Assembly (NCBI GenBank): GCA_903916255.1 | Contig: CAIWVW010000086.1 | Coordinates: 381 to 64,380, forward strand | DNA length: 64,000 nt | Origin: an uncultured Bacteroidota bacterium | GTDB taxonomy: Bacteria; Bacteroidota; Bacteroidia; JABEUT01 | Direction: 5' to 3' | Part shown: piece after piece, positions 39,546 to 57,344 of the stretch | How the letters are laid out: every line of letters begins with the position of its first letter | How positions within the stretch are numbered: the stretch's first letter is position 1 | Made by a program: the position numbers and the translations under genes | Notes under the pieces: model-generated | Told to the model about the DNA's origin: nothing | The model's input: only the letters and a program-made list of their open reading frames with translations | The model's database searches: none

Positions 39546-40901
39546 ATGAAAGTACATCTGATAGCCGTTGGCGGAAGCGCCATGCACAACCTAGCCATTG
39601 CCTTGCATAAAAAAGGAATAACAGTTACCGGTTCCGACGATGAAATAGTAGACCCTGCCAAAAGTAATTTGCAACGCTATGGCTTATTGCCTTCGGCCGA
39701 GGGCTGGGATGTGAACCGCATTACAAAGGATTTGGATGCTGTTATTTTAGGTATGCATGCAAGGCTCGATAACCCTGAATTGATAAGGGCGCAGGAGTTA
39801 GGCATACGTATTTATTCTTACCCTGAATATCTATATGAGCAGACAAAAAATAAAACGCGTGTGGTGATTGCGGGTAGCCATGGGAAAACCACTATTACCG
39901 CTATGATTCTGCATGTGCTGAAGTACCACAATAAGAATTTCGACTATTTAGCCGGCGCTGCACTGGAAGGTTTTGAAACCAGTTTGAAACTTTCGGAAGA
40001 TGCGCCGGTGGCTATATTTGAGGGAGATGAATATCTTGCGTCCGCATTAGACAGGAGGCCAAAATTTCTTTTATATAAGCCCGACATTGCTTTAATATCA
40101 GGTGTTGCGTGGGATCATATAAATGTGTTCCCAACATATAGAAGCTATGTGGAGCAGTTTGAAAATTTTGTGAAAGAGATACCTGTTAATGGCTCATTAA
40201 TCTACTGTAATGAAGATGAGGAAGTGCGCAAGCTTACCTCACTGGCCAAAGGCGGTGTAAACTTACTTCCCTATAACACGCTTACCAATGTGGTGAAAGA
40301 TGGAGTAACTTATTTGCATGGAGATGCAGGAGATACAAGACTTGAAGTCTTCGGGAAACATAACCTGCTCAACATGGGTGGGGCTTGGGAAGTATGCCTG
40401 TTGTTGGGAATTACGCAGAAAGAATTCGCAGAAGCTATATCTTCTTTTAAAGGCGCAGCAAGGCGTTTGCAGTTGGTGGCGAGAAATGAAACCACCAATA
40501 TTTATTGGGATTTTGCGCACTCCCCATCTAAACTTACAGCTACAATACAAGCGGTAAAGGAGCAATTTCCTAAAAGGAAATTAGTCGCCTGCATGGAGTT
40601 GCACACCTTTAGCAGCCTTACGAAAGAGTTTTTGAAAGAGTACAAAGGCACAATGGATAACGCTGATGTGCGCAAAGTATATTTTAACCCGCATGTGCTG
40701 GAGCATAAGCGATTGGCGGCTCTCAGTGCTGATGAAGTGAAGAATTATTTTGGTTCAGTTGAAGTTTATACCGATTCAGCAAAAATGATTGACTCTCTAA
40801 AGCAACTTGATTGGAAAGATACCAACCTGCTTATGATGAGCTCCGGTAATTTCGACGGGGTGAATGTAAAAGGTTTTGCGGAGGGGCTGATTCACCATTA
40901 A
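39546..40901 (+). CDS. mpl: Mur ligase family protein (UDP-N-acetylmuramate:tripeptide ligase Mpl / MurC-like)
   Basis: N-terminus MKVHLIAVGGSAMHNLAIAL...GxxVTGSD is the MurC/Mpl N-terminal fold. P-loop GSHGKTTIT. Mur ligase middle and C-terminal domains. Confidence 0.75.
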   Translation: MKVHLIAVGGSAMHNLAIALHKKGITVTGSDDEIVDPAKSNLQRYGLLPSAEGWDVNRITKDLDAVILGMHARLDNPELIRAQELGIRIYSYPEYLYEQTKNKTRVVIAGSHGKTTITAMILHVLKYHNKNFDYLAGAALEGFETSLKLSEDAPVAIFEGDEYLASALDRRPKFLLYKPDIALISGVAWDHINVFPTYRSYVEQFENFVKEIPVNGSLIYCNEDEEVRKLTSLAKGGVNLLPYNTLTNVVKDGVTYLHGDAGDTRLEVFGKHNLLNMGGAWEVCLLLGITQKEFAEAISSFKGAARRLQLVARNETTNIYWDFAHSPSKLTATIQAVKEQFPKRKLVACMELHTFSSLTKEFLKEYKGTMDNADVRKVYFNPHVLEHKRLAALSADEVKNYFGSVEVYTDSAKMIDSLKQLDWKDTNLLMMSSGNFDGVNVKGFAEGLIHH

Positions 40902-46511: not shown

Positions 46512-47210
46512 ATGGAAAAGGCAAGTATATTATTGGTGGAAGACGAACCGAAAATGTCGGCCTATGTAAAAATGGGACTGGAAGAAAACCATTATCATAT
46601 AGATATTGCCATGGATGGGCGAACAGGAGCTGATTTGGCTTTGAGGAATAATTACAGCGCCATAGTACTCGACGTAAACCTCCCCGAATTAAATGGCTAT
46701 GAAGTTTGCCGCTTAATCAGGCAAAAAAAACCCAGGTTGCCTATACTCATGCTTTCGGCGTTGAATAAAATCGAAAACAAACTGGAAGGCTTCAATACCG
46801 GAACGGATGATTATCTGGTAAAACCATTCGAGTTTGCCGAGTTATTGGCCAGATTAAAAGTGCTGCTCAATCGTTCCGAGCTGATAACGGAAAAGAATAA
46901 AGTTTTGAAAGTGGCTGATTTAACCATGGATTTAGATTCGAAAGTTGTTAAACGCGGTAAAATTATTATTGAACTTACCCTGAAAGAGTTTAACCTGCTG
47001 CAATATCTTATGCAGAACAAAAACAAAGTAGTAAGCAGGGCAGAATTGCTCGAAAAAATATGGGGCATCAATTTCGATACCGGAACCAATGTTATAGATG
47101 TGTATATTAATTTCCTGCGTAAAAAAATAGATTTGCCATCCTTTCCGAAACTGATACATACCTATATTGGCATGGGGTATATTTTAAAAGCAGGAGGAGA
47201 TGCAGATTAG
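46512..47210 (+). CDS. OmpR-family response regulator transcription factor
   Basis: Receiver domain (LLVEDEP...D at the phospho-acceptor position in IVLDVNLPELNG...K in YLVKPF). Winged-helix C-terminus (LTLKEFNLLQYLMQNKNKVVSRAELL..., TYIGMGY). Confidence 0.9.
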   Translation: MEKASILLVEDEPKMSAYVKMGLEENHYHIDIAMDGRTGADLALRNNYSAIVLDVNLPELNGYEVCRLIRQKKPRLPILMLSALNKIENKLEGFNTGTDDYLVKPFEFAELLARLKVLLNRSELITEKNKVLKVADLTMDLDSKVVKRGKIIIELTLKEFNLLQYLMQNKNKVVSRAELLEKIWGINFDTGTNVIDVYINFLRKKIDLPSFPKLIHTYIGMGYILKAGGDAD

Positions 47211-48576
47211 GGAAAGGTTAACGCTGCGGTTCTCTTTAATTGTAACGGTTATTCTGGTTCTGTTTTCATTAGCTATTTATTATATTTTTTCTGTTTACCG
47301 CGAAGACCGGTTTTATGATGATTTGTATGCCGATGGGCTTACCGAGGGCCGCATGTACTCTAAAGACGTAAAGGAGATAGATACTACCATGCTCCGGATT
47401 ATAGATAAGAATACATTATTTACCCCTGAAACAGGGGTTGATGTGTATAGTGATTCGGGTAAATTGGTATACAGGTATCCGTTGGAAGTGCCTGCCCCTC
47501 CTTTATCGGAAAATTTATTTATCAAAATAAAAAGCAGTAATCAAATAAGGGAAAAAGATGGGAAGAATGAAGCCCTCTGGATATACTATAAAGGAAAGCT
47601 GGAAAATGCCATTGTATATATATATGGCTATGATGCCGTGGGATATGATAAGTTGCGTTTTTTAGCTGAAATATTGAGTATCGGTTGTTTTGTTGCGTTT
47701 TTTATCACCTTTATTTCGGGGTATTTTTATTCCCGGCAAATACTTCTGCCCATTAATAATATTATTAAAAATGTAAGGGATATTACCGCTTCCAACCTTG
47801 ATTTGCGACTGAAGGTGGGCAAAAACAATGACGAAATAGACAGGCTGGCGCTCACCTTTAACCAAATGCTGAACGGACTGGAGGAAGCTTTTGAAATGAA
47901 AAAGGATTTTATTTCCAATGCATCGCACGAACTGCGCACACCGCTCGGAATATTAATGGTTCAAATTGAAGTGGCGCTGCTCAGCGATCGTACATCTGTG
48001 GAATATAAGAAGGTGCTTGCCTCTATGCTGGATGATATAAAAAGACTGCGCCTGCTGATGAATGGGCTGCTGGAGTTGACAGAAGCAAGCATGAGCCCGG
48101 AATCGCTTAAACTTTATCCAATAAGGATTGACGAATTACTGTGGCAAGCAAAAGGCGATTTATTGAACCAACACCCGAATTATAAAGTAATCGAACGATA
48201 TACCATTATTCCGGAGAACCAGAAAAAACTGATAATACACGGGAATGAACTTTTATGCAGCGCACTCATTAATATCATGAATAATGGATGCAAGTATTCG
48301 CATGATAACCAGGTGTACATATCGCTGGAAGCAAAAAACGATGTGGTTACCATTACCTGCACCGATATGGGCATAGGCATACAGGAAGATGATATGAAAA
48401 AGATATTTCAACCTTTTTACAGGGGCGAAAACGCCAAATCATTTTCAGGAAATGGCCTGGGGTTGGCCCTTACGCAAAAAATCATTGAACTGCACAAAGG
48501 CGTTTTAGAAATAGATACCAAACTGAATGAATATACACGGGTAACAGTTATTTTGCCGATTCAGAAGGAGGACTAA
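47200..48576 (+). CDS. Sensor histidine kinase (two transmembrane helices, HAMP, HisKA, HATPase_c)
   Basis: H-box FISNASHELRTPL, N-box MNNGCKYS, G1 DMGIGI, G2 GNGLGLAL. Overlaps the regulator stop by 11 nt, so operonic. Confidence 0.85.
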   Translation: MQIRERLTLRFSLIVTVILVLFSLAIYYIFSVYREDRFYDDLYADGLTEGRMYSKDVKEIDTTMLRIIDKNTLFTPETGVDVYSDSGKLVYRYPLEVPAPPLSENLFIKIKSSNQIREKDGKNEALWIYYKGKLENAIVYIYGYDAVGYDKLRFLAEILSIGCFVAFFITFISGYFYSRQILLPINNIIKNVRDITASNLDLRLKVGKNNDEIDRLALTFNQMLNGLEEAFEMKKDFISNASHELRTPLGILMVQIEVALLSDRTSVEYKKVLASMLDDIKRLRLLMNGLLELTEASMSPESLKLYPIRIDELLWQAKGDLLNQHPNYKVIERYTIIPENQKKLIIHGNELLCSALINIMNNGCKYSHDNQVYISLEAKNDVVTITCTDMGIGIQEDDMKKIFQPFYRGENAKSFSGNGLGLALTQKIIELHKGVLEIDTKLNEYTRVTVILPIQKED

Positions 48577-48633
48577 CCCATAACTACTGACAATTTTATC
48601 GGCACTCGGAAAATGATTGTTACGAAATAAAAA

Positions 48634-49024
48634 AGCAGGTCTGTAAGCCGGATTCTGTCTACCCCTCATGACTGAGGCTGATTCTATCATTTATCTCATC
48701 ACACCGAAATGTGATAGGGCATTGCATTGCTGCGTTGCGCCTGCAACCTACCCACCAAGTCGGGCGAGCCACCCTAAAGCCCTGGCTTATTTGGTCTTGC
48801 AACTCCCGGGGTTTATCCCTACTGCAAGTTGCCCTGCAATATCGTGAGCTCTTACCTCGCGTTTTCACCCTTACTCCGCATTGCTGCGGGGCGGTTATTT
48901 CCTGTGACACTGTCCGTCACCAAACATTTACTGCCTGATGCCCCCTGTATTCCAGGGGTGGGATGCTCCTTGTTGTCCGGACTTTCCTCTCCGCATTGCT
49001 GCGAAGCGATAGAACGACCTGCTG
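48634..49024 (-). ncRNA. rnpB: RNase P RNA, bacterial type A
   Basis: Minus-strand reading gives the universally conserved elements AGGAAAGTCCGGAC (P4 5' strand), AAGGGTGAAA, GTAAGAGC.CAC, GGGTAGGTTGC and ACAGAATCCGGCTTACAGACC (P4 3' strand). P1 is formed by AGCAGGTC at the 5' end and GACCTGCT at the 3' end, followed by a T-tract. Length about 390 nt. Confidence 0.85.
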
Positions 49025-49210
49025 GGCGCAAAATTACTAATAAAAAAACAAAGCCAGTGCGATTATAATTCTGACGAAGGAAGTATCTCTTCTATAAAGA
49101 GATACTTCGCTCTGTTCAGGATGACAAAGCCATGTTAATAATAGAGTGGGGGAGGGGGGTAAGTATTAGTGCAAACCCATATATTTGCAGCTTTTAGAAA
49201 ACGAGCACTA

Positions 49211-51928
49211 ATGAAATTAAGGGTAGGAATTATTTTTGGAGGCTTTTCGCGGGAGCGGGAAGTCTCTTTTGCAGGCGGACGCACGGTGTATGATAACCTC
49301 GACAAATCGCTGTTTGATGCCATCCCTGTTTTTGTTGACAGCTTTGGCAATTTCGTTCTGCTCGATTGGAAATATATTTACAAAGGAAGTATCCGCGATT
49401 TTTATCCTCCGGTGGAATATCTGCCCAATTCTCCGAATAACTTTCAGGTCTATGCGGAGTCAGTGGTCAGTGGTCAGTCATCACTGGTTGGTGAAGGAAA
49501 GAACGTTGCGGTGGAAATGCTGGATAAAATCGGCACGCATGTTAAGGCGGAAGAATTAAAAAAACATATTGACTTTGCATTCCTTTGCCTGCATGGGGCA
49601 GGAGGGGAGGATGGCAGCATACAAGGGTTACTGGAGTATTTAAAAATTCCTTATTCCGGTTCGGGAATATTGTCCTCTGCATTGGGTATGGATAAAGCTT
49701 TGCAACGCCAATGGATGAAAAGTTACGGCTTTGCAACGCCCGATTATATTACGTTGAAAAGAACTGATATTTCAGATGCAAACCTTAAGAAAATACATAG
49801 TAGTTTTAAAAAGAAAATTGGCATCCCTTGTGTTATTAAACCTTCGCATCAAGGCTCTTCTATTGGTGCTACTGTACTAAGTAAAAGTGACTATGCCTCT
49901 TTTGAAAAAGCTGTTTACCGCAGTTTTTTCATGCAAAAGATTTCATTCGGCGAATGGAAATCATATAGCAAAGAACAGCAAATTCATTTTATTAGGGAAA
50001 TGTCCGATATCCGCGAGGGTATAGGTTTCCCATTAATACTAAAAAGCAAAAAGGAATCAATTGTAATTAATCATCCTGAGGAGCTTTTAACAAAAGTCAA
50101 CTCTATTTTCGGTAAATCAAAGGAGGATATTTTATTGGAAGCATTCGATGGAGAAAGCGAAGTGCTGATTGAACGGTTCCTCGACGGCAAAGAGTTTTCA
50201 TGTATTGTGATACAAGATGAAAACGGGAACCCTATTGCATTGCCGCCAACGGAAATCCGCAAGGGACAAAACATATTCGATTATCGTTCGAAATATTTAC
50301 CGGGCTTATCGCGGAAAATCACACCCATAGATTTACCTGAAAAGCAAATCATGTCCATATCCGAAAGTTGTTGCAAATTGTTTTCCGATATGCACTTTAA
50401 TGTATATGCCCGTATAGATGGTTTTATTTCGCCCAAAGGCAAAGTGTTTTTGAATGACCCGAATACCACTTCAGGTATGTTGCCGTCTTCTTTCTTCTTT
50501 CATCAGGCAGCGGAAATTGGGTTGAATCCATCCAAATTCCTGACTTTTATTATTCGTACCTCCATACAGCAACGGCTTATTTCTTCCATGTACTATCCGC
50601 CATTTGCGGCATTGTTAAAAACAATGGACGAATTGCTGGATAAACAAAAAAATGCGCTATCCTCCAAAAAGAAAATTGCCGTAATACTGGGTGGCTATTC
50701 TTCCGAAAGGCATATCTCCGTTGAGAGCGGACGGAACATTTATGAGAAACTGGCATCCTCAACAAAGTATGAACCTTTGCCTGTTTTTCTAAGTGGTAAC
50801 GCTGAAAGTTACAGCCTTTATACTATTCCGATTAATGTTTTGTTAAAGGATAATGCGGATGATATCCGCGACAAGATTTTGAATTATAAAATTCATCCAT
50901 TCATTAAAAAGATTCAGGAGAATTGTAAAGCAATTACCGGAAAGTATGCAACAGGCAAAGCATTGTTGCCACCGCGCAAACTAACCTATGCTCAATTAGC
51001 CAAAGAAGTGGATGGCGTGTTTATTGCGCTTCACGGCAGGCCTGGCGAGGATGGAACAGTTCAAAAAGAATTAGAAAAAGTAGGGTTGCCTTATAATGGT
51101 TCATCGGTAGCTACCTCTGCTATTACTATTAATAAATACGAAACCGACCGGATTCTGCGTGAAAATGGTTTGCTGGTGGCTGATGATATGATTATAAATA
51201 AAGAAGAGTGCAAAGACAAAACGAAAGTATATAATAACCTTGTAAAAAAACTCGGTTCCCCTTTTATTGCCAAGCCAATTGATGATGGCTGCAGTTCAGC
51301 CGTTCGGAAAATTTTATCGGCGGAAGAATTTGATGCATACACAAAACTTATTTTCCGTGATAAAGTAGAAAAGGATAAAAAGGCAACCGAACTATTACAG
51401 ATTCGTGCCAACGAGGAATTCCCGATTAAGAAGGCTTTTTTGGCGGAAGAACTAATCAGTAAAAAGGGTGCTTCCCGTTTTTTGGAAATAACAGGCGGAA
51501 TGCTGACACACTATACGCCGAAAGGAAAAGAATACGAAATTTTTGAAGCATCTGAGGCCTTATCAGAAGGTGCTGTATTATCACTGGAAGAAAAATTTTT
51601 AGCGGGTGAAGGACAAAATATAACTCCTGCACGTTATGCGGCCGACAATAAACTGAGGCAAAAAATATCGGATTCTGTAAAGGCTGAATTTTTGAAAGCA
51701 GCAAGACTTTTGAATATCGAGGGCTATGCCCGAATCGATGCTTTTGTTAGAATTTTTCCCGATGGAAAGTCTGAGGTAATATTTATTGAAGTAAATTCGC
51801 TTCCCGGAATGACCCCAGCCACATGCATATTTCACCAGACCGCCATTAACGGATATACTCCCTATCAGTTTATTGACAATATCCTGCAATATGGTTTTGA
51901 AAAACTAAAAAAGGCCAAACATGCTTAA
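49211..51928 (+). CDS. Tandem-duplicated D-alanine--D-alanine ligase-like protein (two Ddl/ATP-grasp modules in one polypeptide)
   Basis: Module 1 (aa about 1-470): KLRVGIIFGGFSREREVSFAGG, HGAGGEDGSIQGLLEYLKIPYSGSG, ATP-grasp fold. Module 2 (aa about 490-905): KKIAVILGGYSSERHISVESG, HGRPGEDGTVQKELEKVGLPYNGSS, C-terminal FIEVNSLPGMT. Start taken at the MKLRVG ATG; the ORF-track start 14 codons upstream is also possible. Confidence 0.7.
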   Translation: MKLRVGIIFGGFSREREVSFAGGRTVYDNLDKSLFDAIPVFVDSFGNFVLLDWKYIYKGSIRDFYPPVEYLPNSPNNFQVYAESVVSGQSSLVGEGKNVAVEMLDKIGTHVKAEELKKHIDFAFLCLHGAGGEDGSIQGLLEYLKIPYSGSGILSSALGMDKALQRQWMKSYGFATPDYITLKRTDISDANLKKIHSSFKKKIGIPCVIKPSHQGSSIGATVLSKSDYASFEKAVYRSFFMQKISFGEWKSYSKEQQIHFIREMSDIREGIGFPLILKSKKESIVINHPEELLTKVNSIFGKSKEDILLEAFDGESEVLIERFLDGKEFSCIVIQDENGNPIALPPTEIRKGQNIFDYRSKYLPGLSRKITPIDLPEKQIMSISESCCKLFSDMHFNVYARIDGFISPKGKVFLNDPNTTSGMLPSSFFFHQAAEIGLNPSKFLTFIIRTSIQQRLISSMYYPPFAALLKTMDELLDKQKNALSSKKKIAVILGGYSSERHISVESGRNIYEKLASSTKYEPLPVFLSGNAESYSLYTIPINVLLKDNADDIRDKILNYKIHPFIKKIQENCKAITGKYATGKALLPPRKLTYAQLAKEVDGVFIALHGRPGEDGTVQKELEKVGLPYNGSSVATSAITINKYETDRILRENGLLVADDMIINKEECKDKTKVYNNLVKKLGSPFIAKPIDDGCSSAVRKILSAEEFDAYTKLIFRDKVEKDKKATELLQIRANEEFPIKKAFLAEELISKKGASRFLEITGGMLTHYTPKGKEYEIFEASEALSEGAVLSLEEKFLAGEGQNITPARYAADNKLRQKISDSVKAEFLKAARLLNIEGYARIDAFVRIFPDGKSEVIFIEVNSLPGMTPATCIFHQTAINGYTPYQFIDNILQYGFEKLKKAKHA

Positions 51929-52487
51929 AAACCTTGGCGCTTTCTTAAAAAGCAAGACATTTTTCAAGCACTTACTATTGGCTATTTTAGTATGGGTTCT
52001 ATTTTTTGGTTGCGCAGTATATTACTTGTCTCATTATACCCGCCACGGTGAATTTATAGTGCTTCAAAACCTTACCAAAACCAAGGTTGCCTCTGCCGAA
52101 ACACTTCTGAAAAATGAGGAGCTTAATTATATAATTATTGATTCTGTATATGTAGAAGATTCTCCTCCGGGATTGGTAATCAACCAAAACCCATATCCCG
52201 GGGCGCACGTAAAAAAAGGGAGGAACATATATCTGTATGTAACATCTACATTACCGCCCTTGGTTGAAATGCCGAATCTGAAAGATAAATCGTTGCGGCA
52301 GGCGAAAAATTTGCTGGATAACGGAGGGCTTAAAGCCGGTGATATACAGTTTGTTATTGACCCATTACCGGGGTTTGTGCTGGAACAAACATACAAAGGC
52401 AAACAAATTGAACCGGGTACTAAAATTCCGAAGGGTTCGGTAATAAACATGAAGGTGGGCAAGGGTATTACCAATGATACCCTATAA
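51921..52487 (+). CDS. PASTA-domain membrane protein
   Basis: N-terminal transmembrane helix. Two PASTA-like units (LVINQNPYPGAHVKKGRNIYLYV; VLEQTYKGKQIEPGTKIPKGSVINMKVGKG). Overlaps the stop of the Ddl-like gene by 8 nt, so co-transcribed. Confidence 0.7.
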   Translation: MLKNLGAFLKSKTFFKHLLLAILVWVLFFGCAVYYLSHYTRHGEFIVLQNLTKTKVASAETLLKNEELNYIIIDSVYVEDSPPGLVINQNPYPGAHVKKGRNIYLYVTSTLPPLVEMPNLKDKSLRQAKNLLDNGGLKAGDIQFVIDPLPGFVLEQTYKGKQIEPGTKIPKGSVINMKVGKGITNDTL

Positions 52488-52617: not shown

Positions 52618-54558
52618 ATGAAATTCAGCAAAATTCTATTCTGCACATTCTTATTGGTACTTCGTTTCTCATTTCTTTCTGCCCAGGAAAGGTATGACCA
52701 CTTGGCTCCTTTAAAAACCAATCCTGTATTGGTTCAATATACAAAACAGGCTGAAAAAAACCATGGGTTTATCTGGCGAATTATTTCCGATTCGCTGATA
52801 GCTAAACTTCCTTTTTTGGATGATTTTTCACACGGAGGCCCATATCCCAATGATTCCTTATGGATGGATAATGCCGCCTATATCAATAACACATATCCTA
52901 TTTGCCCTCCAAACATTGGTGTTGCAACTTTGGATGGCTTAAACAATAAAGGACAACCCATTAATCCGAATTGTCCGCCCGGTGCATCGTATCCGGCCGA
53001 CACCCTTACTTCACGGCCATTTGATTTTTCGATGTATAAAGGTACCGATTCCATTTATTTTAGTTTTTACTTTCAGGCAGGTGGCAGGGGATATGCTCCT
53101 CTGACTTCCGACACATTAATGTTACAGTTCCGATGCGATAGTTTCCCTTGGACTACTATTTGGTACCATTTGGGCTATACCCCTGTTTTCCCGGATACCG
53201 GTTTTCATTTGGTTATGATACCGTTTGATGAAGATACTATCAACCACGTTCACTTTAATGCATTTAGGAAAGATTTTCAGTTCCGTTTTAAAAACTATGC
53301 CTGCACCTCTGCAAATGTCGACCAATGGAACATTGACCAGGTGTATATGAATAAAAACAGGTTTTATTTCGATACGGCTCATTTTGATGCGGCTTTCGTT
53401 TATGAATCCCCTTCTATCCTTGCAAATTATCAATATATGCCTTGGGAGCAGTTTACTGCCAATGACCTGGCTGATAGTATTCGGATTTATGAACGGAATA
53501 ATAACTACTCTCATTCAAGCCCGATAAACGTAACCTATTCCGATACTCTTATTGGCAGAACATACGCTTCCTCCGGTTATTATGGCGGGGCGTATGATAT
53601 ATATCCCTTTTTTGACAGCGGATATCAGGACTACAGGAAGCATATCTATCCCCAGATAAAATCTCATTTCAATTATGCCCCATTATCAGCACCCGATACA
53701 ATCACACTGACACATGTTCTTAAAGTATCCAACAATTTTGATAAATGGGATGATACCTTGCGATTCGACCAGATTTTTTCAGATTACTATGCATATGATG
53801 ATGGTACCGCAGAAGCCGCTTACTTTATAAACGGAACTGCTCCTATTTATTTGGCATACCAGTTTACCCTTAACAAACCCGATACCCTGCGTGGCTTGGA
53901 GATTTATTTCAATTATATATTTGTTGACCCGCATAACTATGCTATGCGCCTTGCTGTTTGGGATAATTCCGGCCCTGGCGGTTCTCCGGGAAAGATGATA
54001 CGTGAGGATGATTCTATTGTTTATCCGACTGTCTCCGATTCCCTGAATGGCTATACCTATTATCCATATAATTTTGTGCGTCCCGATACCGTGTTTGACG
54101 GAACATTTTATGTAGGCTGGGTGCAGACTTATGGCGACTCCCTTAATATTGGGTGGGATTATAATACCAACCATTCCGATAAGGTTTATTATAATGTAAA
54201 TGTATATCCGGGCGGATGGATGCCTGCCAGTTATGCAGGTTCTATGATGATGCGGCCCGTTTTTGGTAAATCAAATGGACACAGGCCGGTACTGAATGCA
54301 CCTTCTGTTGAAAAAACGACCTATGAACCCCTTTCCATTTATCCTAATCCCGCCACCAATTCGGTTACATTGAGTGTCTCAATGCCGGGCAATACTATCC
54401 TTAAAATATTTACTGCAGATGGCAGGGAATATTTGAGTAACAGTAACTTTTCAGGCAACAACATTGACACATCCACCCTGCCTGCCGGATTCTATATTAT
54501 AGAGGTTATTACCGAAGGCGGTAAAACCTATTATCAGAAGCTACTGATAGCGCGATAG
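52618..54558 (+). CDS. T9SS type A sorting-domain cargo protein, unknown function
   Basis: Signal peptide MKFSKILFCTFLLVLRFSFLSAQ. 646 aa. C-terminal SIYPNPATNSVTLSVSMPGNTILKIFTADGREY...GFYIIEVITEGGKTYYQKLLIAR. Confidence 0.7.
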   Translation: MKFSKILFCTFLLVLRFSFLSAQERYDHLAPLKTNPVLVQYTKQAEKNHGFIWRIISDSLIAKLPFLDDFSHGGPYPNDSLWMDNAAYINNTYPICPPNIGVATLDGLNNKGQPINPNCPPGASYPADTLTSRPFDFSMYKGTDSIYFSFYFQAGGRGYAPLTSDTLMLQFRCDSFPWTTIWYHLGYTPVFPDTGFHLVMIPFDEDTINHVHFNAFRKDFQFRFKNYACTSANVDQWNIDQVYMNKNRFYFDTAHFDAAFVYESPSILANYQYMPWEQFTANDLADSIRIYERNNNYSHSSPINVTYSDTLIGRTYASSGYYGGAYDIYPFFDSGYQDYRKHIYPQIKSHFNYAPLSAPDTITLTHVLKVSNNFDKWDDTLRFDQIFSDYYAYDDGTAEAAYFINGTAPIYLAYQFTLNKPDTLRGLEIYFNYIFVDPHNYAMRLAVWDNSGPGGSPGKMIREDDSIVYPTVSDSLNGYTYYPYNFVRPDTVFDGTFYVGWVQTYGDSLNIGWDYNTNHSDKVYYNVNVYPGGWMPASYAGSMMMRPVFGKSNGHRPVLNAPSVEKTTYEPLSIYPNPATNSVTLSVSMPGNTILKIFTADGREYLSNSNFSGNNIDTSTLPAGFYIIEVITEGGKTYYQKLLIAR

Positions 54559-54707: not shown

Positions 54708-57344
54708 ATGAATCTGAATAATTTTACATTAAAATCGCAGGAAGCCATACAGCAGGCGCAATTGATGGCTGTTGGAAATGGCAACCCTGCCATAGAAGCG
54801 GGCCATATTTTAAAGGGCATTTTAGAAGTGGACCAGAACGTAACGCCTTTCCTTTTTAAGAAGTTGAATATCAATATGCCTATTTTCAGGCAAGCGCTTG
54901 ACAAAATTGTGGAGCGTTACCCTAAAACAGGAGACAGCAATGCCGGTCAATATTTATCGAATGAGGCGCAGCAAGTAATAGCAAAAGCCACTAATTCCAT
55001 TAAAGAATTTAAGGACGAGTATGTATCTATCGAGCATCTGTTGCTGGGTATAATAACTACAAAAGATACCATTTCCCAGTTAATGAAAGACAATGGCATT
55101 ACAGAAGGAGACCTTAAAAAAGCAATTCTGGAATTAAGAAAAGGCAGCACTGTTACCAGTTCCGGACAGGAAGAGACGTATAATGCCCTTAGCAAATATG
55201 CTGTTGATTTAAACGCAATGGCGCAAAGCGGCAAACTGGACCCTGTTATCGGCAGGGATGAAGAAATCCGAAGGGTGCTGCAAATACTTTCTCGCCGCAC
55301 CAAGAACAACCCCATTTTAGTGGGAGAGCCGGGTGTGGGTAAAACTGCCATTGCCGAAGGGCTTGCATCGCGCATTATGAACGGCGATGTGCCGGAAAAT
55401 TTAAAAACCAAAAAGATTTTTGCCCTTGATATGGCTGCCCTTATTGCAGGCGCTAAATACAAAGGAGAGTTTGAAGAAAGATTAAAGGCAGTTGTAAAGG
55501 AAGTAACCTCATCGGATGAGGTGATTTTATTTATTGATGAAATACATACCCTTGTAGGGGCCGGTGGGGGCGAAGGCGCAATGGATGCAGCCAATATATT
55601 GAAACCCGCTTTGGCAAAAGGGCAGCTGCGTGCAATTGGTGCAACGACACTAAATGAATATCAAAAATATTTTGAAAAAGATAAAGCTTTGGAACGCCGC
55701 TTCCAAAAGGTGATGGTGGATGAACCAAGCGAAGAAGACGCTATTTCTATTCTGCGCGGCATAAAGGAAAAATACGAAAGCCACCACAAAGTTCGCATTA
55801 AAGATGAAGCTATTATTTCTGCCGTGGAGCTTTCTCAACGCTATATAAGCGACCGTTTTCTGCCCGATAAAGCCATCGACTTGATTGATGAAGCAGCTTC
55901 CAAATTGAGATTAGAAATAAATTCTGTTCCCGCAGATTTGGACGAGGCAGAAAGGAAAATCCGTCAATTGGAAATAGAACGTGAAGCCATTAAAAGGGAA
56001 AATGATAAGGATAAACTCAATCAGTTAAGCCGTGAAATTGCTGAATTAAGCGATAAGCGTTCCGACCTGAAAGCCCAATGGACATCGGAGAAGGAAGTGG
56101 TTAACTCCATTCATAAAATCCGAAAGGATATTGAAAACCTGAAACTTGAAGCCGAGCAGGCAGAGCGTGTAAGTGATTTTGGTAAGGTGGCTGAAATTCG
56201 CTACGGTAAAATAAAAGAAGCCGAAGAAAAATTGGCGGAGATGGAAAAAAAGTGGGATGTGATTAAAGCTCATGGTTCGCAAATGCTGAAAGAAGAAGTG
56301 GACAGCGAAGATATTGCCCGTGTGGTTTCGCGCTGGACTGGCATCCCTGTAAATAAAATGCTGCAAGGTGAAAAAGATAAATTACTGCAACTGGAAGATG
56401 AACTGCACAAGCGTGTAGTCGGCCAGAATGAAGCCATAGAAGCCGTTGCGGATGCTATACGCCGAAGCCGTGCGGGTTTGCAGGATACCAAGCGTCCGTT
56501 GGGTTCATTTATTTTTATGGGAACTACAGGCGTAGGTAAAACAGAAGTTGCCAAAGCGTTAGCTGATTATCTGTTTAACAGTGAACATAATATGATTCGC
56601 ATTGACATGAGCGAATACCAGGAAAAGCATAGTATTTCCCGCTTGATTGGCGCTCCTCCCGGATATGTGGGCTATGATGAAGGCGGACAATTGACGGAAG
56701 CCGTCAGGCGCAAACCTTATTCTGTTGTATTACTCGATGAGATTGAAAAAGCGCATCCGGATGTTTTTAATATTCTTTTACAGGTATTGGATGATGGAAG
56801 ACTAACGGATAGCAAAGGCCGTGTGGTAAATTTTAAAAATACCATTATCATAATGACTTCCAATATTGGCTCCAATATCATACAGGAGAATTACGAAAAG
56901 ATTACAAAAGCCAATAAAGAGAGTGTTTTTGAAGCTACAAAAGAACAGGTTTTTGAATTATTGCGGAGAACCCTTCGTCCTGAATTTCTGAACCGTATTG
57001 ATGAGGTTATCATGTTCACTCCGCTTACTAAAAAAGACATTAATGCAATTGTTAAGTTGCAGTTTGATGGAGTGGTGCGCAGATTGCAAGAAGAAAATAT
57101 ACGCTTGAGTGCAACCGACGAAGCTATTCAATGGTTGGCAGCAACCGGTTTTGACCCGTCATTTGGCGCAAGGCCGATAAAAAGATTAATCCAGAAAAAA
57201 GTGCTGAATGAACTTTCAAAAGAATTGCTTGCCGGAAAAATTGAACGCGACAGCGATATAGTAATGGATGTGTTTGATGATAATGTAGTATTTCGCAAAC
57301 CAATTGAAGCGGATAAAAGAAAAGCTGTAAGTTCTAAATTATAA
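54708..57344 (+). CDS. clpB: ATP-dependent chaperone ClpB (Hsp100 disaggregase)
   Basis: Two AAA+ modules with Walker A GEPGVGKT and GTTGVGKT. Long coiled-coil middle domain. N-domain repeats. 878 aa. Confidence 0.95.
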   Translation: MNLNNFTLKSQEAIQQAQLMAVGNGNPAIEAGHILKGILEVDQNVTPFLFKKLNINMPIFRQALDKIVERYPKTGDSNAGQYLSNEAQQVIAKATNSIKEFKDEYVSIEHLLLGIITTKDTISQLMKDNGITEGDLKKAILELRKGSTVTSSGQEETYNALSKYAVDLNAMAQSGKLDPVIGRDEEIRRVLQILSRRTKNNPILVGEPGVGKTAIAEGLASRIMNGDVPENLKTKKIFALDMAALIAGAKYKGEFEERLKAVVKEVTSSDEVILFIDEIHTLVGAGGGEGAMDAANILKPALAKGQLRAIGATTLNEYQKYFEKDKALERRFQKVMVDEPSEEDAISILRGIKEKYESHHKVRIKDEAIISAVELSQRYISDRFLPDKAIDLIDEAASKLRLEINSVPADLDEAERKIRQLEIEREAIKRENDKDKLNQLSREIAELSDKRSDLKAQWTSEKEVVNSIHKIRKDIENLKLEAEQAERVSDFGKVAEIRYGKIKEAEEKLAEMEKKWDVIKAHGSQMLKEEVDSEDIARVVSRWTGIPVNKMLQGEKDKLLQLEDELHKRVVGQNEAIEAVADAIRRSRAGLQDTKRPLGSFIFMGTTGVGKTEVAKALADYLFNSEHNMIRIDMSEYQEKHSISRLIGAPPGYVGYDEGGQLTEAVRRKPYSVVLLDEIEKAHPDVFNILLQVLDDGRLTDSKGRVVNFKNTIIIMTSNIGSNIIQENYEKITKANKESVFEATKEQVFELLRRTLRPEFLNRIDEVIMFTPLTKKDINAIVKLQFDGVVRRLQEENIRLSATDEAIQWLAATGFDPSFGARPIKRLIQKKVLNELSKELLAGKIERDSDIVMDVFDDNVVFRKPIEADKRKAVSSKL

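Follow-up and report, generated by a model that had tools for sequence, protein, structure and literature searches.

The 64,000-nucleotide stretch of DNA analysed here (the window, part of contig CAIWVW010000086.1 of an uncultured Bacteroidota bacterium) carries a gene for a protein of 905 amino acids (aa) that consists of two Ddl (D-alanine--D-alanine ligase) units in a single chain, and this gene overlaps the start of a gene for a membrane protein with PASTA domains. Judged from their sequences, the two units, named module A (the first) and module B (the second), are two old and distinct Ddl paralogue types that are common to at least three phyla. In ordinary Ddl the working unit is a dimer whose two subunits are identical. 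The explanation we favour, with a probability of roughly 0.55, is that two unlike paralogue types form a heterodimeric Ddl within the one chain of this protein, and that this ligase is coupled to the PASTA membrane protein.

Two Ddl modules and their active sites

The initial annotation, made from the letters of the window, had claimed that two Ddl modules are fused in this protein, each with a GG..SxERxVS-type motif, an HG..GEDG motif and insertions, and all of this was borne out. Pfam recognised Dala_Dala_lig_N in two stretches of the protein (E 1.3e-48) and Dala_Dala_lig_C in four (E 3.4e-52), the parts aa 1-480 and aa 481-905 could be aligned to each other from end to end (25% identity, E 1e-30), and each half alone matched solved Ddl structures in a sequence search of the PDB, where the best E was 2.7e-43 (first half) and 5e-24 (second half). 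The motifs read GGFSREREVS and HGAGGEDG in the first module and GGYSSERHIS and HGRPGEDG in the second. Both modules contain insertions relative to E. coli DdlB, which in module A are located at about aa 43-112 and 228-305, and the linker between the modules (aa 459-485) has no DdlB counterpart in the alignment. In the omega-loop of module A the motif DYRSKYLPGLSRK is conserved in the family alignment. The protein as a whole scored 389.6 bits against the NCBIfam model of the Ddl subfamily (NF002378) and thus passed its cut-off of 243 bits.

To map the active-site residues, E. coli DdlB (taken from NC_000913.3) was aligned to family alignments of 173 first and 172 second modules. In module A the residues that correspond to those of DdlB (in brackets where the number differs) are E15, H128 (H63), K162 (K97), K210 (K144), S216 (S150), E321 (E180), E328 (E187), K361/Y362 (K215/Y216), R401 (R255), D403 (D257), D416 (E270), N418 (N272), G422 (G276), S427 (S281) and F428 (L282). 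In module B they are E499 (E15), H608 (H63), K642 (K97), K688 (K144), C694 (S150), E746 (E180), E759 (E187), K795/F796 (K215/Y216), R841 (R255), D843 (D257), E860 (E270), N862 (N272), G866 (G276), T871 (S281) and C872 (L282). Hence both modules retain K97, K144, E180, E187, K215, R255, D257, N272 and G276 (DdlB numbering, used from here on). All three Mg ligands (D257, E270 and N272) are found in module B, and module A has D257, N272 and an Asp at position 270 that is constant in modules of type A. The Glu15/Ser150/Tyr216 triad is complete in module A and reads Glu, Cys, Phe in module B. The omega-loop position of Tyr216, which is a His in ligases of the VanA type and a Phe in those of the LmDdl2 type, is therefore a Tyr in module A and a Phe in module B.

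The mapped positions of both modules were invariant in an alignment of 62 sequences that share 60-91% identity. The exact signature pair of the window was found in 145 of the 173 family members, and all but one of the remaining members differ only at K144 (Arg in module A) or at the last position of module B (L282 in DdlB). The mean pairwise identity was slightly higher for module B (0.654) than for module A (0.631), with B being the more conserved module in 81% of the pairs, which is not the behaviour of a decaying pseudo-enzyme. As a refutation of its reading the initial annotation had named the case that one half is without the catalytic residues and clearly degenerate. This is not so, as the residues for ATP binding, Mg binding and catalysis are invariant in both modules, and a degenerate second half is ruled out for the family of the window by these residues and by the conservation figures of the two modules.

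We ran AlphaFold2 on the 905-aa chain with a sequence alignment (A1). The mean predicted local distance difference test score (pLDDT) over the whole chain was 85.4 and the predicted template modelling score (pTM) was 0.87, and confidence fell below 50 only at aa 89-95 (in an insert of module A) and in the omega-loops (aa 352-368 and 797-803). A pair of long helices, at aa 440-458 and aa 463-485, forms the bridge between the modules. A pTM of 0.87 for a chain of two modules suggests that these have a defined mutual arrangement. All matches of a Foldseek comparison with the PDB were Ddl or Van ligases (TM-scores of 0.75-0.88 per target), among them 1IOW, the structure of the Y216F variant of DdlB, and no solved chain with two Ddl modules was found among the sequence and fold matches in the PDB. 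The idea of a pseudo-dimer, also voiced in the initial annotation, fits with this pTM, with the occurrence of A and B as adjacent separate genes in relatives (see below) and with the Ddl dimer that is reported to recur across the structures of the family, in which longer C-terminal helices reach the partner subunit (PMC6899670).

Spread of the A-B pair and its PASTA partner

The signature of module A (EHKKSEEKYRDDNGSF) and that of module B (EHKKCEEKFRDENG/A-T-C/V/A) recur unchanged in all classes of tandem proteins that we found. In a neighbour-joining tree of 43 modules, A and B formed separate clades (bootstrap 79 and 89 of 100, respectively), each of which contained members from Bacteroidota, of the Dependentiae type and of the Patescibacteria type in a parallel order. 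In this set, modules of type A had a mean identity of 0.36 to one another and those of type B one of 0.38, whereas for comparisons of A with B the mean was 0.25. As both clades span the same three groups, the A-B pair must be older than its spread and has moved as one unit, and a recent duplication in situ in the lineage of the window can be ruled out.

Within the Bacteroidota the fused form is widespread. The 120 clusters that were listed by a word-indexed search share these domains and a length of about 900 aa; where they had been named, they were called 'D-alanine--D-alanine ligase' of metagenome-assembled genomes (MAGs) of Bacteroidia. A scan with one genome per species provided 58 loci, from MAGs labelled Saprospiraceae, Chitinophagales, Cytophagales or Bacteroidia and also from the complete genome CP012155.1 (Bacteroidetes bacterium UKL13-3). 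No further ddl gene was found in the window or within the flanks of 10 kb on either side of these 58 related loci. An exhaustive search among representatives resulted in 641 clusters at E ≤ 1e-30. A follow-up search assigned the shorter A-B tandems of about 715-755 aa (around 740 aa) to Candidatus Dependentiae/Babeliales, whose records give these proteins the name 'ATP-grasp domain-containing protein', and tandems of about 790-830 aa (around 800 aa) include one cluster that was labelled Patescibacteria by NCBI and named 'hypothetical protein'. The Patescibacteria copy (locus L063) adjoins the genes ftsW-murG-murC-murB. The initial annotation had called the architecture not a textbook one. The architecture is common rather than rare, and database records give it generic names only.

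The same two modules were also encountered in other arrangements. In two related loci (L068:5001-8671 and L069:2481-6151) module A (477 aa) and module B (425 aa) are encoded by separate genes with a gap of 139 nucleotides (nt) between them, followed by a PASTA gene that overlaps the B gene by 4 nt, and the 477-aa A protein was found on 6 contigs. Such adjacent separate genes are what one would expect of two subunits of one complex. A further sequence that had been taken for a 'B-only' protein and thus for evidence of split genes (P0181) was dropped, as it is cut by the end of its contig. Stand-alone genes of the B type do exist, for instance in Cardinium and Amoebophilus, whose B proteins retain the full B signature. 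In the genome of the endosymbiont Cardinium cEper1 (HE983995.1, 887 kb) a PASTA gene comes immediately after the gene for a lone B-type ligase, a protein of 439 aa with the annotation 'uncharacterized' (L072:8001-10051). In yet other relatives the ligase and the PASTA domains are fused to A-B-transmembrane-PASTA proteins of 1190-1337 aa, with a Pro-rich linker and one transmembrane segment between ligase and PASTA, and some of these fusions are catalytically intact. In one protein from an ENA metagenome (P0263, 987 aa) a GNAT acetyltransferase domain is fused ahead of the A-B tandem.

The PASTA protein of the window has a cytoplasmic tail of 17 aa with the motif FLKSKTF ahead of its single transmembrane segment. 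The domain search detected no kinase domain in this 188-aa protein, only the transmembrane segment and PASTA; the NCBIfam model PknB_PASTA_kin was aligned to aa 18-184 with its PASTA part only (64 bits, cut-off 450). A tail motif like FLKSKxF and a motif like YTRHGE..VPDL after the transmembrane segment are common to the free-standing and the fused forms of the PASTA protein. The gene order module A, module B, PASTA was found in almost all of the 58 related loci, which is far beyond chance, and B is the module next to PASTA in the A-B-PASTA arrangement, in the split form and in Cardinium alike. The link between the ligase gene and the PASTA gene that had been noticed in the initial annotation is thus real, as is clear from the overlap of 8 nt in the window, the conserved synteny and the natural A-B-transmembrane-PASTA fusions.

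Proposed mechanism and alternative explanations

In the mechanism that we propose, the two old Ddl paralogues, joined head to tail via the helical linker, most likely pack on each other like the subunits of the usual dimer. Both modules are predicted to be catalytic, as is expected from their full sets of residues for ATP binding, Mg binding and phosphoryl transfer. The A-B protein would supply the D-Ala-D-Ala with which MurF extends the peptidoglycan precursor, and module B may accept another second substrate too. In this reading the ddl gene is translationally coupled to the PASTA gene, and the PASTA protein would probably dock on the module B side of the ligase through its short cytoplasmic tail, a docking that would keep the synthesis of the dipeptide at the membrane or adjust it there.

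Several observations weigh against the single-chain heterodimer as we propose it. The packing of A on B as in a normal Ddl dimer, most likely as it is, has been derived from the pTM of the model. Single modules score below the NF002378 cut-off of 243 bits (235 for A and 162 for B). The chemistry of either module could be altered, because module A has an Asp in place of the metal-bridging Glu270 and module B, with Cys150 and Phe216, is without the Ser150/Tyr216 part of the hydrogen-bond triad. In those loci of Patescibacteria and Dependentiae that were examined, the tandem gene is not followed by a PASTA gene, so that the link with PASTA looks specific for the Bacteroidota. In addition, there are relatives that have lost a site. 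Proteins of 570-634 aa from Cytophagales have an intact module A and, after it, a non-catalytic remnant of B, of whose N-terminal domain about 100-150 aa are left. Among them are the product of a complete gene (L062:2940-4844, 634 aa) and the 589-aa proteins of Emticicia (Emticicia sp. C21, L071:8001-9770), and neither PASTA nor B genes were found near these two loci. In a protein from an uncultured Phaeodactylibacter MAG (CAZAXA010000193.1, L049:1348-4029), module A has Pro150, Arg215, Gly270 and Arg272, and module B is intact with a Ser rather than a Cys at position 150. These relatives indicate that two active sites are not required everywhere.

Of the alternatives, a bifunctional ligase survives best, although we still consider it unlikely. 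Here module A would make D-Ala-D-Ala and module B another D-Ala-D-X (e.g. D-Ala-D-lactate or D-Ala-D-Ser), which would result in precursors with two kinds of termini. Module B has a Phe at the position of Tyr216 and a Cys at that of Ser150 across the members, with the Ser150 of the Phaeodactylibacter MAG protein as the exception. Tyr216, Glu15 and Ser150 form a hydrogen-bond triad that is linked to specificity, the Y216F change confers depsipeptide (D-Ala-D-Lac) activity on DdlB, and a natural Phe is found in the D-Ala-D-Lac ligases of lactic acid bacteria, where F258Y reverses the phenotype in L. reuteri (PMC3378904). Phe216 and Cys150 therefore make a relaxed or different choice of the second substrate possible for module B, and the Phe is no more than a pointer towards a second product. 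That the A and B signatures have been held apart across three phyla also suggests that their roles are non-redundant. On the other hand, the modules scored only 89-110 bits against the NCBIfam D-Ala-D-Lac model (cut-off 550), with module B at 89 bits, no vanH-like or vanX-like gene was found within about 10 kb, and with an outer membrane present nothing obvious would be gained from lactate termini. The case of Cardinium cEper1 points in the same direction: its published table of peptidoglycan genes lists murB to murG and mraY and no ddl (PMC3486910 Table S3), so the lone B module beside PASTA may have to supply the normal dipeptide there. This is weak evidence, as omission from a table is not proof that ddl is absent.

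It is quite improbable, in our view, that only one module works and the other has a structural or regulatory role, binding nucleotide or substrate without turnover, and is kept as a dimer partner or as a docking site for PASTA. The Asp at position 270 in module A and the relatives in which A is intact and B is cut to a remnant (the 634-aa and 589-aa proteins) favour a single live site, and so does the Phaeodactylibacter MAG protein, in which the metal ligands of A are gone and B is intact. A further case of loss is a fusion of 1189 aa from Phaeodactylibacter sp. GCA_013215155.1 (NRA48597.1, L065:437-4006; A-B-transmembrane-PASTA, with the database name 'PASTA domain-containing protein'), which has lost the catalytic residues of both modules and is resembled by about 10 further clusters of 1190-1240 aa. 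By their sequences these doubly dead fusions look like pseudo-enzyme paralogues, and the variants that lost sites indicate that the scaffold and its tie to PASTA are useful beyond catalysis. In the family of the window, however, every catalytic residue is invariant or nearly so in both modules and neither module evolves faster than the other, and the same residues have been retained in the small genomes of Dependentiae and Patescibacteria.

A more far-reaching version of the heterodimer reading would be a transmembrane feedback without a kinase, in which the PASTA repeats sense un-crosslinked peptidoglycan or lipid II and switch both ligase sites via the tail or the fusion, setting the amount of dipeptide and possibly its kind (D-Ala-D-Ala from A and D-Ala-D-X from B), with the A/B pair being ancestral to plant DDL; taken as a whole, this version is speculative and we give it little chance. 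Finally, it is very improbable that the protein is some other ATP-grasp amino-acid ligase with no more than a resemblance to Ddl. This reading is favoured by the scores of the single modules, which do not reach the curated Ddl cut-offs, by the unusual residues at positions 150, 216, 270 and 282, by the large conserved inserts and by some relatives that carry only the two generic names given above. Against it, sequence and fold comparisons gave Ddl or Van ligases as best matches in every case, E15, H63, R255, G276 and S/T281 of the D-Ala site are retained, the Patescibacteria copy adjoins a mur/ftsW cluster, and a comparable plant enzyme is required for the supply of D-Ala-D-Ala in moss (PMC9954125).

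Genomic setting and comparison with known systems

The features of the ligase gene and its surroundings are collected in the table. The open reading frame would allow a start at the GTG at 49169. We favour the ATG at 49211, which yields the 905-aa protein beginning with MKLRVGIIFGG, because the N-termini of the homologues agree with it and because a candidate promoter box, TATATTTG, lies within the alternative GTG reading. The box resembles TAnnTTTG, which we take to be the Bacteroidota -7 consensus. A scan of the sequence for sigma-70 promoters and terminators was not informative, as promoter-like sites were fewer than in shuffled sequence.

Table. Features of the two-module ligase gene and its surroundings (positions in the window)
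Feature	Position	Strand	Basis or remark
Mur ligase family protein, 451 aa (Mur_ligase_M, Mur_ligase_C)	~39546-40901	+	Gene table of identical contig; ~8 kb upstream of ddl
OmpR-type response regulator and HAMP/HisKA histidine kinase, overlapping genes	46512-48576	+	Upstream of RNase P RNA gene
RNase P RNA, bacterial class A	48628-49025	-	205 bits, gathering score 100; ~185 nt upstream of ddl start, divergent orientation
Perfect 12-bp hairpin (GAAGTATCTCTT, loop CTATA, AAGAGATACTTC)	49080-49108	+	Between RNase P RNA gene and ddl; no T-run after it
Open reading frame	49169..51928	+	Open reading frame list
Possible Bacteroidota-type -7 promoter box (TATATTTG)	49180..49187	+	Read from sequence; 23 nt upstream of ATG
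Two-module (A-B) D-Ala-D-Ala ligase gene, 905 aa, stop codon included	49211..51928	+	Open reading frame list; Pfam/NCBIfam Ddl matches; full-length homologues of ~900 aa
Module A (aa 1-458), Ddl-like ATP-grasp unit	49211..50584	+	Family alignment with E. coli DdlB, invariant columns, AlphaFold2 secondary structure
Omega-loop of module A (aa 352-368), with K361/Y362	50264..50314	+	AlphaFold2 pLDDT <50, as expected for a mobile lid
Helical linker between modules (aa 459-485)	50585..50665	+	AlphaFold2 helices 440-458 and 463-485
Module B (aa 486-905), divergent Ddl-like ATP-grasp unit	50666..51925	+	Family alignment, signature counts
Omega-loop of module B (aa 790-806), K795/F796 in LSLEEKFLAGxGQNITPA	51578..51628	+	Alignment; pLDDT <50 at aa 797-803
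188-aa one-pass membrane protein with PASTA domains	51921..52487	+	PF03793, E 9.4e-22, 2 stretches; 8-nt overlap with ddl stop
Transmembrane segment of PASTA protein (aa 18-36)	51972..52028	+	Hydropathy scan
Extracytoplasmic PASTA repeats (~aa 48-184)	52062..52472	+	Pfam best stretch aa 48-107 and second stretch
646-aa protein with type IX secretion C-terminal sorting domain (Por_Secre_tail)	52618-54558	+	After the PASTA gene; sorting domain in keeping with a Bacteroidota origin
ClpB	54708-57344	+	After Por_Secre_tail protein gene

The textbook view of Ddl, an essential enzyme that is targeted by the drug D-cycloserine, is that of a homodimer encoded by a single gene. The ligase of the window shares with canonical Ddl (DdlB and DdlA of E. 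coli) the three-domain ATP-grasp fold, the ATP-binding and catalytic residues and, apart from position 270 of module A, the Mg ligands, and its module A also shares Glu15, Ser150 and Tyr216. It differs in having two unlike units per chain, where canonical Ddl pairs two copies of a chain of 300-370 aa, in the deviating residues of module A (Asp for Glu270 and Phe for Leu282) and module B (Cys150, Phe216, Thr281 and Cys282), in the large conserved inserts of both modules and in the linkage to a PASTA gene. The Phe-type D-Ala-D-Lac ligases (LmDdl2 and the Ddl of L. reuteri) and the Y216F variant of DdlB have, like module B, a Phe at the decisive omega-loop position; LmDdl2 and the L. reuteri enzyme differ from module B in their Ser at position 150 and in being homodimers of a single module. 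The chlamydial MurC-Ddl protein (NF011171, against which the window protein scored 170 bits at a cut-off of 1015) is likewise a natural fusion with Ddl in the peptidoglycan precursor pathway, but there the partner is a Mur ligase and not a second Ddl. The PASTA-containing Ser/Thr kinases (PknB/Stk1) have the same topology as the fused relatives, i.e. a cytoplasmic enzyme, one transmembrane segment and PASTA repeats on the outside. Here, however, a kinase domain is absent, the cytoplasmic enzyme is a ligase of precursor synthesis, and in the window the two parts are encoded by separate, overlapping genes. The PASTA link suggests a route without a kinase from the state of the cell wall to the supply of precursors.

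No paper on tandem Ddl in bacteria, or on Ddl together with PASTA, came up in our literature searches. The system is not new in kind, since the architecture is widespread and plants are known to have a two-unit form; what appears to be new, as far as the searched literature shows, is that the A and B signatures are fixed, that the pair is spread over several phyla and that it exists in split, fused and PASTA-linked forms. A fixed pair of unlike Ddl modules is conserved in Bacteroidota, Dependentiae and Patescibacteria, whether fused, split or tied to PASTA, behind generic database names, and annotation cut-offs made for single modules misjudge such A-B proteins. If both sites are active and their specificities differ, the end of the stem peptide would be controlled in a way that has not yet been described.

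A known parallel is the DDL of plants (Arabidopsis AtDDL, moss PpDDL BAE45860 and rice OsDDL), which, as compared here from published descriptions only, also has two complete Ddl units per polypeptide and differs in being eukaryotic and plastid-related. To our knowledge it has no PASTA partner. Plant DDL was absent from the best 150 representatives and from the matches of the Dependentiae-tandem search. According to its published description, the plant gene joins two putative DDL enzymes in one fusion, and knockout of Ddl in moss led to loss of D-alanine dimerisation and to giant chloroplasts (PMC9954125). The moss Ddl was reported to be closest to homologues from the Fibrobacteres-Chlorobi-Bacteroidetes (FCB) group (PMC9434261). 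The A-B family could serve as a bacterial model for the two-unit plant enzyme; how this enzyme is designed and what it does in flowering plants is a matter of continuing debate. From this comparison it is likely that the plant enzyme descends from the A-B family, which would provide the bacterial proteins with a functional anchor in vivo.

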